The notes below the pieces were generated by a model that made no database searches, was not told the DNA's origin, and worked only from the letters and a program-made list of their open reading frames with translations. From NCBI GenBank assembly GCA_018992685.1, contig JACVGT010000003.1, forward strand, positions 64,001 to 128,000: a stretch of DNA of 64,000 nucleotides, in the 5' to 3' direction. A program made the position numbers and the translations under genes. Positions 2,823 to 22,496 of this stretch are shown here, in pieces (within the stretch, counting starts at the first letter, position 1; the number at the start of each line of letters is the position of its first letter). The DNA comes from Theionarchaea archaeon (GTDB taxonomy: Archaea > Methanobacteriota_B > Thermococci > Methanofastidiosales > SZ-28-30).

Positions 2823-3620
2823 TTACTCTCCATACCTCCTTCTTCTCTTCTGAAATTCCCGGATGATTCTGAGAAAGTCCACTTTTCTGAAGGCAGGGAA
2901 GTATATGTCACAGAAGAATAGTTCTGAGTATGCAGCCTGAAACAGGAGAAAATTGCTCAGCCTGACTTCTCCCCCTGTTCTGATAATCAGGTCAGGATCA
3001 GGTCCTGCTCTGTACAAGTGTTCCTTTATGACTTTTTCTGTAATATCGTTCACCCTGAATCCGCCCTCAGTTATCTTCTTCGCCACCTTCTTGAAAGCCT
3101 CAATAATTTCCAGCCGGCCCCCATAGGCGATGCACACGTTAAAGAACTGGTTATCATAGTTCTGGGTTGCTTCTTCTGCAGTTTGGATGGCTTTTCTGAC
3201 TTTTTCAGGAAGAAGGCTCAGATTGCCCAGGGCCCGTATGCGGATTCTGTTCCGGTGTATCCTCTCATCCTCGGCAATTTCGTAAAATTTTTTTTCAAAA
3301 AGGTCCATCAAATGGTTAACTTCCTTCTTGGATCGGTTGAAGTTCTCTGTAGAAAAAGCATACACGGTGATTTCTTTGATCCGCAGCTCACTGCACCAAT
3401 CCAGAATCTCTTCGATCTTATAGGCCCCTTGCTGATGTCCCTTCAGGGTCAATACTCCAATTTCCCTGGCGAACCGCCTGTTTCCATCCATAATGATGCC
3501 AATGTGTTTCGGGATGGTCCCCTTGTGAATTTCATCAATGAGATGCGCTTCATATATGTAATACACAGGGCGCATAAGGAATGAAGGAATGTGTGAATAA
3601 AGGAAAGATTTCAAATGCAT
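2823..3620 (-). CDS. uppS: Polyprenyl (undecaprenyl-type) diphosphate synthase, cis-prenyltransferase
   Basis: Motifs HIGIIMDGNRR, YAFSTENFNR, YGGR, DPDLIIRTGGEVRLSNFL and RRRYG. Confidence 0.96.
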   Translation of the reverse strand: MHLKSFLYSHIPSFLMRPVYYIYEAHLIDEIHKGTIPKHIGIIMDGNRRFAREIGVLTLKGHQQGAYKIEEILDWCSELRIKEITVYAFSTENFNRSKKEVNHLMDLFEKKFYEIAEDERIHRNRIRIRALGNLSLLPEKVRKAIQTAEEATQNYDNQFFNVCIAYGGRLEIIEAFKKVAKKITEGGFRVNDITEKVIKEHLYRAGPDPDLIIRTGGEVRLSNFLLFQAAYSELFFCDIYFPAFRKVDFLRIIREFQKRRRRYGE

Positions 3621-16968: not shown

Positions 16969-19110
<2,142 letters not shown>

Positions 19111-19160
19111 ATCTTTCCCTTTCTTTCTTTGGCTTCTTCCTTTTCGGATTATTTTTTTCC
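19111..19160 (+). terminator. Pyrimidine/T-rich terminator after cdc48
   Basis: Successive T-rich tracts including T7. Confidence 0.55.
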
Positions 19161-19327
19161 TGCATTGTGATGCTGCCTTCCCCTCAGGGTGGCCTTACAC
19201 TCTGGAATTCTTGGCTTCATTGGCATCACATTGGGCACGTTTTCAAGATTCTCTTTTTGACCCGGGTGATTTGAACGACTGCATGACCATGCAAAAACTT
19301 ATATAGGTCGTATCAGAAGACAAAGGT

Positions 19328-19474
19328 GGAGGAAAGGAGGATAGAACTGTGTGTCTATCTAAATACTGGGTGTCTGCTGTAGTTCTGGCTATATGCCAGG
19401 AAGCTGCAGCGTAGCTGTTCGCGAAGAGCGGACAGAGAACGCAGTAGTCCCTTTCTCCTCCTGATTTTGAGGAG
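19328..19474 (+). promoter_or_regulatory. Structured 5' leader (riboswitch/attenuator candidate) of the GH3-radical SAM operon
   Basis: TATA at 19298-19305, three hairpins, a closing stem, a 7-bp pseudoknot and an alternative SD-sequestering hairpin (detailed in findings). Confidence 0.55.
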
Positions 19475-19482
19475 GTGGAAAG

Positions 19483-20991
19483 ATGAATACACATCTACTG
19501 CAGAGAGTAGAGAAACTTGCAGGAGACGATAGTGCTCTAGAACATGCTGAAAAAGTGCAAGAACAAGTTCTACGCAGTATTCTAAAGGCAAACAGAAATA
19601 CTGTATTCGGCAAGGACCATTCATTCTGTGAGATTGATTCCATAGAGTCTTACCAGAAGAGACTACCTCTGGCTCGTTACGATGACTTCAGACTGTATCT
19701 TGAACTGATGAAGGCCGGTGTCCCACATATCCTTCTAGCAGAGGATTTTCCTCGTTGGGCAGAAACCAGTGGAACGCTCTCTTCTCCAAAGCTGTACCCG
19801 ATTCCCGAGGTCATGGCAGAGCATTTTGGCAGAACCCTGGCCAAGATTGTGGTGAGCTGCGTGGAGGAAGAGCCATCCAGAAAATTCCTCCTGGAAGGCA
19901 AGATGCTCATGGTGGTGGCTGATGTGGCAAGCCGGTATGTAGCAGGCAAACCGGTGGGGTACATTTCAGGTGTGGTATCCCATGATGTACAGCAGCTGCC
20001 AGGGATGGCAGAGGCCTTCACTCCTTCTCAGAAGGTGTTAGCTATGGGAGATTGGGAAGAACGGTGGCTGGAACTGACGAGGCATGCTTCGAGAGAGAAT
20101 GTTACCATGAGCTGTTCCACGCCTCCCATTCTTCTGTCATACTTCAAGAAAGTGATTTCAGAATACCGTCCTCTCCTAGGCCTACCCGACACCATACCAA
20201 CGATCTGGCCCAACCTTGAGCTTATAACAGGAGCAGGGGTAAGAATGTCCCTGTACAGGAAGCAGTACCAGAAGCTTCTGGGAGACCAGGTGTGTTGCCG
20301 GGAGTTCTACTGTGCCACAGAAGGGTTCTTCGCCTATCAGAAAGATGAGAGAGAGGGGCTTACACCTATTCTCAACCATGTGTTCTACGAGTTCATTCCG
20401 CTTGACGAGTGGAACCAGATGGAAGAACCCCACAACTACAAGACTCATCCCCTGACGCGACTTTCCTACACTCGGGTTTCCCTCAACACGGACTACGTGC
20501 TGGCAGTGACTACTCCCGGTGGGCTGTACAGCTACATCATTGGGGATATCGTTCGGTTCATTGGGCCTGACAGACTGTTTTGGGTTGGCCGGCTAGGATG
20601 GGAAAGCAGTGTGGCTGGAGAGAAGTTCAACGAAATGCACATGTCCATGCTGAGGCAGTCAATGGAATCTACGCTGGGTGTTGAGATCACCAACCACATG
20701 GCAGCAGTGAAGGACGACCCTTTGCGGTACGTCTTTGCCTTTGAATTCGAGGAGAGCATTGATGTGAACACAGTCGTTGAGACAGTGGACAGGTCACTAC
20801 GGGAGGTAAATGCCATATATGATGATTTGAGGAAAAAAAATGTACTCAAATGTCCAGATATCGTTGCTCTCCAGAAAGGAACTTTTGATCGCTATATCAA
20901 GCGGAAACAGAAAGAGGAAAAGTCACTTGGGCAGATTAAGCCACCGTTGTTTGCAGATTCCGCCTTGATAGATGAGTTGGCAGAAGACTAG
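19483..20991 (+). CDS. GH3-family acyl-adenylate/amide synthetase-like protein
   Basis: Motifs 'NTVFGKDH-F..I.S...YQ..LP...YDD', P-loop TSGT...K..P, Y-ATEG, GLYSY-IGD-V-F, and GQIKPP at the C-terminus. Confidence 0.88.
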   Translation: MNTHLLQRVEKLAGDDSALEHAEKVQEQVLRSILKANRNTVFGKDHSFCEIDSIESYQKRLPLARYDDFRLYLELMKAGVPHILLAEDFPRWAETSGTLSSPKLYPIPEVMAEHFGRTLAKIVVSCVEEEPSRKFLLEGKMLMVVADVASRYVAGKPVGYISGVVSHDVQQLPGMAEAFTPSQKVLAMGDWEERWLELTRHASRENVTMSCSTPPILLSYFKKVISEYRPLLGLPDTIPTIWPNLELITGAGVRMSLYRKQYQKLLGDQVCCREFYCATEGFFAYQKDEREGLTPILNHVFYEFIPLDEWNQMEEPHNYKTHPLTRLSYTRVSLNTDYVLAVTTPGGLYSYIIGDIVRFIGPDRLFWVGRLGWESSVAGEKFNEMHMSMLRQSMESTLGVEITNHMAAVKDDPLRYVFAFEFEESIDVNTVVETVDRSLREVNAIYDDLRKKNVLKCPDIVALQKGTFDRYIKRKQKEEKSLGQIKPPLFADSALIDELAED

Positions 20992-21017
20992 GTACATCAG
21001 GGGTGGTGAGAAATCTC

Positions 21018-22496
21018 ATGGTTCGATTCCTGCTAGTGAACAGTCACAAGTGGGAACCTCCATCCCCTCCTGCTGCTCTGGATTATGTAGCAGAGCAGTT
21101 GGAGGGTGAGGGTGTTGCCACGGATCTTGTGGATGTAGCCTTTACCAGTGAAGATGATGTGAGAGCCTTGCTTCAGACCACGCACTACGATGGTGCGTGC
21201 ATGACTATCCGCAACCTGGAACGCACCGCCTTTTCTGAGACTCTCCATTTTCCTCTCCCTGCCACGAGGTCCCTCGTCCACTTGATAAAGAGCTACTGCA
21301 AAGGGCCTGTTGTGGTGGGAGGAAATGGATTCTCCATCTTGCCAGAGAGGATTTTGGAGTATGTAGGAGCAGATTACGGCATCTACGGGTGTGGAGAGAC
21401 TTCTCTTCCTTTACTACTCAGGTACATACTCCATGGGGCAGGAAACATATCTGAAATTCCGTATGTGGTCCACCGTGAAGACGGCACAGTGAAGCGCAAC
21501 CCACCTGGACCCTTCAGAAGAGAGCTCCCTGTGGTGAAGAGAGGGCGAGTAGACTATCACATGTATTACAGCCCGGGCCACCAGCACTTTTCTGGATTTG
21601 GAGTCGTTGAGACTAAGAGAGGATGCCCTCACCGGTGCATCTACTGTGTTGAACCCTTCATCAAGGGGAAGCAAGTGCGAGTAAAATCACCTGGTTCTGT
21701 GGCAGCAGAAATTGACTGGTTTCTTGACCAGGGTATCAGCTACTTGTTCATTGCAGACAGTGAGTTCAATGCAGACTACGAAGCTGCAGTGAACCTGGTT
21801 ACCTACCTTAAACAACATGGATATCACCGGAAGATCAGATGGATTGCATATGTGACCCCCACTCTTTTTACAGAGGAACTGGCAGCACTCTTGTCCCAAT
21901 CGGGGGTTCTAAGTCTCATGATAGACTTCGGCCACGTCAACCCGACGATCCTCTCAAACCTTGGGAAGGCCCACACACCTCGGGACATTGAACGTGTCAT
22001 AGCATGGTGTGACGAATATGCCATACCCTTCAGGGGGAGTCTGATGCTGGGAGGTCCTGGGGAAACATATGGCACCATTGAGGAAGCTATAGAATTCTTC
22101 AAGAGGTACTCCTGCAAAGTATTCACGATTTTGGGGATCCGCGTGTTTCCCAATACTCCACTGGGAGAAGCTGTCCAGAGAGAAAGAATTTCAGAAAACC
22201 CACATCTCTGTGGAAAGGTACTCCAGAATGACGATCTCTTGGAGCCAGTCTACTATATTTCTCAGGACCTAGGAGAAAATGTCTTCACGTACTGCGAGAC
22301 CCTCACTGGTGACTCAGAGCAGTTCTATACAGTTACTTCTCCCTTCAGATTGACAAGAATCATGCACGGACCTTTCAGAGGAGTCCATCCTGAATATGAA
22401 CTCTATGGCTGTCCCAAGACCCGCTATCTAACCCGCCTTTCGAGAGATGCAGTTGAAGCTCCGCTTTTTGAGGAAGATGAGGAGAGGTCTTCATGA
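21018..22496 (+). CDS. Cobalamin-binding radical SAM enzyme
   Basis: N-terminal B12-binding domain (IRNL, VVVGG-GFS, G-GE), TKRGCPHRCIYC motif, and LGGPGET. Confidence 0.9.
   Translation: MVRFLLVNSHKWEPPSPPAALDYVAEQLEGEGVATDLVDVAFTSEDDVRALLQTTHYDGACMTIRNLERTAFSETLHFPLPATRSLVHLIKSYCKGPVVVGGNGFSILPERILEYVGADYGIYGCGETSLPLLLRYILHGAGNISEIPYVVHREDGTVKRNPPGPFRRELPVVKRGRVDYHMYYSPGHQHFSGFGVVETKRGCPHRCIYCVEPFIKGKQVRVKSPGSVAAEIDWFLDQGISYLFIADSEFNADYEAAVNLVTYLKQHGYHRKIRWIAYVTPTLFTEELAALLSQSGVLSLMIDFGHVNPTILSNLGKAHTPRDIERVIAWCDEYAIPFRGSLMLGGPGETYGTIEEAIEFFKRYSCKVFTILGIRVFPNTPLGEAVQRERISENPHLCGKVLQNDDLLEPVYYISQDLGENVFTYCETLTGDSEQFYTVTSPFRLTRIMHGPFRGVHPEYELYGCPKTRYLTRLSRDAVEAPLFEEDEERSS

Follow-up and report, generated by a model that had tools for sequence, protein, structure and literature searches.

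We analysed a stretch of 64,000 nucleotides (nt) from a contig of a Theionarchaea archaeon (hereafter the window; coordinates are positions within it, on the + strand unless stated; assembly G000, 3.0 Mb in 45 contigs) and identified a structured leader of ~155 nt located directly 3′ of a conserved TATA box and in front of a gene of the GH3 family. We consider this to be a real and new cis-regulatory leader and most likely an effector-controlled translational switch. In the form that we favour, with a probability of about 0.5, three strands of the RNA would compete for pairing under the control of an effector, thereby exposing or burying the Shine-Dalgarno (SD) sequence of the GH3 gene, and the leader would define a new RNA family on GH3 genes in Theionarchaea-like archaea. 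The structure is supported by thermodynamics, conserved complementarity and recurrence at a paralogue, not by covariation. The leader belongs to the SD-sequestering regulatory leaders, which are rarely documented in archaea.

Predicted folding and occlusion of the Shine-Dalgarno sequence

Strand A, the SD-like purine tract at the 5′ end, is a direct repeat of strand C, the true initiation region, and strand B, a pyrimidine tract, is the common partner of both (Table 1). The underlying complementarities are those of GGAGGAAAGG (19328-37) with CCTTTCTCCTCC (19450-61), of CTCCTC (19455-60) with the SD sequence GAGGAG (19469-74) and of ACTGTGT (19346-52) with ACGCAGT (19439-45). An earlier note, made from the sequence of this stretch, had listed these segments together with a TATA box and a number of stems, all of which lie where it had placed them, and had located the leader in front of a gene pair encoding a GH3 protein and a B12-binding radical S-adenosylmethionine (SAM) protein, an assignment with which the Pfam domains agree.

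The minimum free energy (MFE) structure predicted by RNAfold for 19328-19485 (-66.6 kcal/mol) includes hairpins 1 to 3 and a 12-bp helix (19451-62 / 19470-82) that buries AGGAGG-U-GGAAAG up to the base before the AUG at 19483. Within this structure 19436-46 pairs with the second copy (19364-75) of an ACUG(U/G)GUGUCU motif, which is locally duplicated (19346-19356 and 19364-19375) only in G000 and its relative G001 and so leaves the P2 partner strand a choice between two mates. If the SD region is constrained to stay single-stranded, the most stable fold has -63.7 kcal/mol and consists of a 14-bp helix (19328-42 / 19447-61) stacked on a nested helix (19346-56 / 19436-45). The closing stem proposed earlier is therefore found when the SD is held unpaired but is absent from the unconstrained MFE structure, and its exact combination with hairpin 1 amounts to -61.0 kcal/mol. 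The pseudoknot proposed in the same place is probably none in topology: the pairing of ACUGUGU with ACGCAGU is real and is the best-kept long-range pairing of the leader, but with hairpin 1 opened it forms the nested helix P2, with which the comparison of relatives agrees. This leader contains hairpins 2 and 3, but they are lineage-specific rather than conserved parts, and hairpin 1, a good helix in G000 and G001, needs a bulge or is lost elsewhere.

The + strand of the leader folds with a z-score of -5.26 relative to dinucleotide shuffles, none of 200 being as stable, in keeping with the earlier proposal of a structured leader; the - strand has a z-score of -4.21. To place the occlusion of the SD in context we used 564 crude open reading frames (ORFs) of the same genome, each of at least 200 amino acids (aa) and with an SD-like motif. 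The predicted unpaired probability of the GH3 SD is 0.0017 compared with a median of 0.40, the lowest value of the entire set (rank 1), while by local MFE the gene ranks 13th of 564. The anti-SD sequence is the one that we take to apply here, the 16S rRNA not being in the assembly.

The 64-kb window contains no match to Rfam 15 at gathering thresholds, in line with the earlier note, which by eye saw no match to the cobalamin, SAM-I or c-di-AMP consensus, and relaxing the search of 18500-20500 to E-values of up to 10 yielded only two chance-level hits, both within the coding region. No other copies of the leader were found in the genome by BLAST or by pattern, nor was a complementary partner for it detected elsewhere in the genome by BLAST, and a search of the operon mRNA for a long-range target of the 5′ block gave no site at a conserved position. 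Over 19230-19520, the DNA contigs of one of four sequencing runs came from a nearly identical strain that differs by one G-to-A change (X7), and those of the other three were of the G001 type; neither enlarged the comparison.

Conservation among orthologues and recurrence at a paralogue

We searched 133 genomes of the class, which is equivalent to the phylum, and found an orthologue of the GH3 gene in three, all of one genus: G000, G001 (86 % aa identity) and G002 (67 %). A scan of genome contigs gave no orthologue beyond those of G001 and G002. A metagenome scan returned 19 loci, 12 of which are GH3 orthologues at 58-71 % identity. The leader lies upstream of the gene in all three genomes, and nine metagenome orthologue loci, out of 11 with upstream sequence, also have it, giving 12 leader-bearing loci and nine distinct sequences (L026 is identical to L025, L029 to L011 and L034 to L033).

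Aligned (alignment A3), these leaders show a near-invariant 5′ block of ~35 nt (UGGAGGAAAGGAUGAGAAAACUGCUGUGUCUAUCUA in most), a variable middle of ~75 nt and a conserved 3′ part composed of the partner of the CUGCUGU segment, the tract UCCUUCCUCCUCC, a short loop and AGGAGG(G)UGGAAAG-AUG. Columns 1-12, at the strand A end, are invariant in all nine. Pairwise identity is 0.77-0.94 in the 5′ block (35 nt), 0.70-0.98 in the 3′ part (45 nt) and 0.53-0.84 in the middle, compared with 0.31-0.60 at four-fold degenerate sites of the GH3 gene. Both ends of the leader are thus far more identical than near-saturated four-fold sites, implying strong purifying selection on each of them, while the middle appears from its sequence to be close to neutral.

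The two mutually exclusive pairings of a single pyrimidine strand, first suggested for this leader alone, are retained in all nine distinct orthologous leaders, with A:B duplexes of -14.6 to -18.4 kcal/mol and B:C duplexes of -14.6 to -19.8 kcal/mol. Ensembles in which strand C or strand A is forced to be free differ by 1.2-4.8 kcal/mol in 9/9 leaders, the SD-sequestered side always being slightly favoured. Unconstrained, the MFE structure is the sequestered form in six leaders and the A:B form in three, and even in those three the SD is partly closed by a 5-bp hairpin. Transcripts ending just after strand B close with A:B and P2 in every case. P2 pairs the near-invariant CUGYUGUGUCU with the segment just 5′ of B and is in register in 8/9 leaders.

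We compared these pairings with a number of controls. A(+P2):B is more stable than mononucleotide shuffles in 11/11 leaders (z -2.5 to -6.2), 8 of 11 related leaders have a whole-leader z-score of at most -2.3 and the sequence-divergent middle domain alone reaches -2.4 or lower in 6 of 11. For P1, P2 and B:C 87-88 % of alignment cells are paired, compared with 50-73 % in slid controls. A cross-family duplex matrix used as a test of covariation was not discriminating.

A second GH3 gene, a monocistronic paralogue of ~31 % aa identity, is present in G000 (contig 12), G001 and G002, where it is cut by the contig end. Its leader has the same promoter type, length class and opening motif, GGAGGAAAAGA...ACUGUGUGU. 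Lacking its 3′ end, this leader closes by AGAG.CGAGAUACUGUGU / CACAGUAUUUC.UCUC, while in the complete leader UAUUUCUCUC has the option of pairing with GAGAGAGAUG over the start codon, at a difference of 1.8-3.7 kcal/mol between these states. An analogous alternative pairing is therefore built from other strand sequences, which suggests that the logic of the switch recurs in the paralogue. Since no radical SAM gene follows the paralogue, the leader goes with GH3 and not with the B12 enzyme, and the link to the radical SAM gene drawn in the earlier note is not supported. A pattern describing the 5′ motif matches only five leaders in the 133 genomes, all of them upstream of GH3 genes, while the reversed control matches none.

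A covariance model of the main family (R1), searched against 34 genomes of the order, scores 117-142 bits on G000-G002 and 22.6 bits on the next best hit; hits outside these three genomes (≤ 22.6 bits) were rejected as noise, mainly SD-like sequence. The best hit outside the genus (21.3 bits, L014:2182-2287 on the - strand, G016 contig 11) lies ~700 nt upstream of a GH3 gene of a third paralogue group, before the preceding gene, and consists mostly of the SD-like 3′ part; it is probably noise as well.

Proposed mechanism and competing explanations

In order of transcription the RNA would comprise the purine strand A (GGAGGAAAGGA...), the P2 strand ACUGYUGUGUCU, a variable hairpin domain, the P2 partner, the pyrimidine strand B (UCCUUCCUCCUCC) and the initiation region C (AGGAGGUGGAAAG-AUG). 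In the proposed OFF state B:C would bury the SD up to the start codon, forming the slightly favoured end state, and in the ON state A:B stacked on P2 would leave the SD free. As strand C is made last, A:B can form first during transcription. An effector binding the invariant 5′ block and the P1-P2 region would hold A:B and P2 together and so turn translation on; it would most likely be a small molecule tied to GH3 chemistry, the alternative being a protein. The ON state would also base-pair the 5′ end, which might protect the mRNA. What the analysis shows is the sequences and their conservation, the alternative complementarities, predicted energies that are nearly equal, an unusual sequestration of the SD and the association with GH3 genes; the transcription start, in vivo switching and which way it goes, and an effector of any kind are inferred.

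Several results weigh against such a switch. B:C is no better than mononucleotide shuffles of C in 10/11 leaders (z -0.3 to -1.9) and could simply follow from a pyrimidine tract adjoining a purine-rich SD. Comparison of the orthologues showed conservation but gave no compensatory covariation, as most pairs are invariant and one pair per structure changes on both sides, nine sequences giving little power; in close relatives substitutions keep the predicted pairs no better than slid controls. Among the nine leaders no conserved aptamer core is evident, the invariant nucleotides being mostly helix strands, the P1-P2 bulge merely purine-rich and the distal domain variable. One leader, L027, is without P2 in register. 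The orthologue lineage represented by the identical L031 and L036 (60 % aa identity) does without the structure altogether: its 128-nt leader is AT-rich and nearly unstructured (-10.4 kcal/mol), with neither purine nor pyrimidine tracts in the ~200 nt before position 3001. Finally, the paralogue leaders do not exceed shuffled sequences in stability (z ~ -1.6) and go unrecognised by R1 (12.1 and 8.1 bits).

Whether the effector is a metabolite, which would make the leader a true riboswitch as first proposed, is doubtful. The alternative helices predicted to control the SD correspond to the expression platform of a riboswitch, and the association with genes recurs, the leader being found only upstream of GH3-family genes; against this proposal stand the missing covariation and the want of an evident conserved, unpaired core. 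We can only tentatively suggest an archaea-native riboswitch class in which the ligand of the 5′ block and P1-P2 junction would be a metabolite from an acyl-amide or amino-lipid pathway of GH3, switching on translation of two paralogous GH3 genes. We place the odds of a riboswitch no higher because no aptamer-like core or covariation is visible and the invariant bases are those of the switching strands. The bistable adenine ‘add’ ON-switch is a translational riboswitch with an SD-sequestering expression platform. Like riboswitches of this kind the leader is situated in the 5′ untranslated region (UTR), has one strand that alternates between an anti-sequestor and an SD-sequestering helix, has states close in energy and serves one functional gene family. 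Unlike them it has no Rfam match, evident conserved unpaired pocket or covarying aptamer stems, and its invariant parts are the switching strands themselves. One account (PMC8241225) names the fluoride riboswitch of Thermococcus kodakarensis as the only natural archaeal riboswitch shown experimentally as of 2021. Narrow literature searches, which did not extend to supplements, found no report on the leader described here, and no title on RNA regulation was among the matches listed for Theionarchaea.

The same leader could be a static structure that answers to no effector, with fixed occlusion of the SD throttling translation or the fold protecting the 5′ end of the mRNA, and with A:B complementarity as a by-product of an SD-like 5′ sequence. 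That the sequestered state is favoured in 9/9 constrained comparisons and is the MFE structure in 6/9 leaders fits this explanation, as do a B:C helix accounted for by composition, the missing covariation and aptamer-like core, and an L031/L036 lineage that functions without the structure. We nevertheless regard it as unlikely since it leaves unexplained the identity of 77-94 % that the 35-nt 5′ block keeps despite saturated divergence, the A(+P2):B complementarity well above shuffles, and the balance of folds within 1-5 kcal/mol in every lineage and in the paralogue.

A further explanation, to which we give little weight, assigns the role of the effector to the ribosome. The 5′ end would then be an initiation site, either a terminal NUG or GGAGG followed by AUG 5 nt on, of an upstream ORF (uORF). 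Ribosomes initiating there would keep A and the P2 strand unpaired so that B stays on C and GH3 is repressed; with A paired, the uORF would be closed and GH3 open. The arrangement recalls the leader-peptide translational attenuation of erm and cat genes, in which a short upstream ORF governs alternative helices that occlude a downstream SD. As in those systems, the short ORF of the leader overlaps the first strand of the alternative helices; unlike them, its peptide is conserved only as MEER/K, its conserved bases are read in three frames and several members have no start codon or one other than AUG. In 11/11 leaders a short ORF begins with an NTG directly before GAGG (ATG in 6, GTG in 2, TTG in 3), reads MEER/K... 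and runs for 12-62 codons, and the NTG is within 1-2 nt of the start spacing of the apparently leaderless paralogues. In 6/9 distinct main-family leaders GGAGG is followed 5 nt later by an internal AUG, and the direct repeat of the true initiation region by strand A also speaks for this reading. However, the conserved CUGYUGUGUCUAU is read in three frames among the leaders, with varying stop positions, and the leader of this window and two others are without the internal AUG. The terminal codon is GUG or UUG in 5/11 leaders, compared with a figure of 94.9 % AUG given for the leaderless mRNAs of T. onnurineus (PMC5316973), and a pyrimidine at -1 with a purine at +1 favours a start of transcription at the G after T, which would exclude the NUG from the RNA. 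Control driven by a uORF is possible but is not the simplest reading. A plain leader-peptide attenuator was rejected, the ORF occurring in 11/11 leaders but varying in length, frame over the conserved bases and start codon.

It is improbable that the conservation is that of DNA, with the block from +1 to +35 acting as an operator or initially transcribed promoter element, perhaps read by the same transcription factor as the TGCAT-N4-ATGCA repeat of the promoter, and with the RNA structure incidental. In favour of this reading, the 5′ strands of P1 and P2 are invariant while their partners vary, the promoter palindrome is common to the orthologues and in part to the paralogue, and the G000 block holds an inverted repeat (GATAGA-N8-TCTATC), although this repeat is imperfect outside G000 and G001. 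A DNA element leaves unexplained why the pyrimidine tract and initiation region, 120 nt further downstream, are just as conserved, why the two strands fold unequally (z -5.3 vs -4.2), why the middle hairpins are stable yet divergent in sequence, and why the SD is so extremely occluded.

The rpoS leader, which is opened by small RNAs, and RNA thermometers such as ROSE and fourU likewise have an SD buried by an upstream pyrimidine-rich strand. In the present case, unlike these, the leader carries its own opener, strand A, at its 5′ end, and the B:C helix (12 bp, approximately -15 to -20 kcal/mol) is much more stable than is typical of thermometers. An RNA thermometer is unlikely in view of the B:C energies of -14.6 to -19.8 kcal/mol and the conserved competing strand A. 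Other candidates were set aside: transcription attenuation (G000 and G001 have a T4 run in the B:C loop, but it is not conserved), an 83-aa antisense ORF at 19243-19494 (frame and length not kept in relatives), a 23-codon sense ORF from the ATG at 19393 (stop in G001), a kink-turn bound by L7Ae, read by eye from GGAUGAG / GA-UCC (GA precedes UCC in only 2/9 leaders), and a T-box-like reading of the 5′ UGGA, which was dropped as pure speculation.

An effector-controlled switch of the kind we favour would offer a compact and testable example of translation controlled through the SD in archaea of an uncultured lineage, with the anti-sequestor, sequestor and SD strands clearly assigned. Two natural contrasts are available, a paralogue whose strands differ in sequence and an orthologue lineage in which the structure has been lost, the latter (L031/L036) being a useful control. 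Should the effector prove to be a metabolite, the leader would represent a new ligand class and possibly an inducible tool for archaeal genetics.

Promoter, neighbouring genes and feature coordinates

The distance from the first T of TTATA(T/A) to the first G of GGAGG is 28-29 nt at 11/11 leader loci with the TATA box on the contig; the twelfth leader-bearing locus, L029, is omitted from this count as its contig is cut there. In the third GH3 paralogue group the ATG follows the first T of TTAT by exactly 28 nt at 5/7 loci (L012, L018, L019, L020 and L021), which suggests from sequence that the mRNAs of this group are leaderless. Transcription start sites of Thermococcus are described as having a TATA box centred at ~-27, a pyrimidine at -1 and a purine at +1 (PMC5316973). 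Taken together, the leaderless-type spacing and the Thermococcus pattern place the probable start of transcription of the leader at 19327-19328, so that the RNA would begin with the purine tract. The same source describes archaeal 5′UTRs as short, with a median of 12 nt in T. onnurineus, making a conserved leader of ~155 nt exceptional.

Upstream of the TATA box, TGCAT-N4-ATGCA has perfect 5-bp arms in 6/9 distinct orthologous leaders and one mismatch in L027, is missing from L033 and L035 and survives in part in L031 and the paralogue locus L016. To judge from its sequence it looks like a candidate transcription-factor site, in which case the operon may be under control at two levels.

Table 1 Positions of the leader, its parts and neighbouring genes in the window; paralogue leaders are given by locus
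Feature	Position	Strand	Remarks
CDC48-type AAA ATPase gene	ends 19110		upstream of the leader
Inverted repeat TGCAT-N4-ATGCA	19280-19293	+	adjoins the transcription factor B recognition element (BRE)/TATA; separate from the RNA element
TATA box CTTATATA	19298-19305	+	read from the sequence; kept in relatives
Short ORF of the leader, VEERRIELCVYLNTGCLL	19326-19382	+	starts at GTG 19326
Predicted transcription start	19327-19328	+	from TATA spacing
Strand A, 5′-terminal purine tract GGAGGAAAGGAGGAU	19328-19342	+	SD-like; predicted anti-sequestor
Hairpin 1	19339-45 / 19354-60	+	in MFE structure
P2 5′ strand ACUGUGUGUCU	19346-19356	+	near-invariant in orthologues; also loop and 3′ arm of hairpin 1
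Second ACUG(G)GUGUCU copy	19364-19375	+	alternative mate of 19436-46; G000 and G001 only
Variable distal domain (hairpins 2 and 3)	19376-19435	+	RNAfold; sequence and architecture not kept outside G000 and G001
Hairpin 2	19376-89 / 19395-19410	+	in MFE structure
Hairpin 3	19415-22 / 19428-35	+	in MFE structure
P2 3′ strand AGAACGCAGUA	19436-19446	+	fold and pair counts
Strand B, pyrimidine tract GUCCCUUUCUCCUCCU	19447-19462	+	common partner of A and C
Strand C: SD AGGAGGUG, spacer GGAAAG, AUG of the GH3 gene	19470-19485	+	SD buried in MFE structure
GH3-family adenylating/amido-synthetase gene (502 aa)	19483-20991	+	Pfam GH3 N, M and C domains
B12-binding radical SAM gene (497 aa)	21003-22496	+	co-oriented, 11 nt downstream of the GH3 gene
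Leaders of the GH3 paralogue	L016:1298-1455 (G000 contig 12), L017:1318-1476, L015:1-110

The radical SAM gene follows the GH3 gene at 12 of the 14 loci searched, the contigs of the remaining two ending first. The GH3 protein is nearest to the NCBIfam model OlsH, a lyso-ornithine-lipid synthetase (182.6 bits, cut-off 620), and the radical SAM protein to TIGR04072, ‘lipid biosynthesis B12-binding/radical SAM’ (221.9 bits, cut-off 360); with both scores below the cut-offs these are family-level hints only. Ornithine lipids are stated to be absent from archaea in two papers (PMC12493201, PMC12971839). The association with the leader flags archaeal GH3-type enzymes, related to OlsH but below its cut-off, as regulated functions, and the archaeal pair of GH3 and B12-binding radical SAM genes has as its nearest models, at scores below their cut-offs, bacterial OlsH and ‘lipid biosynthesis’.

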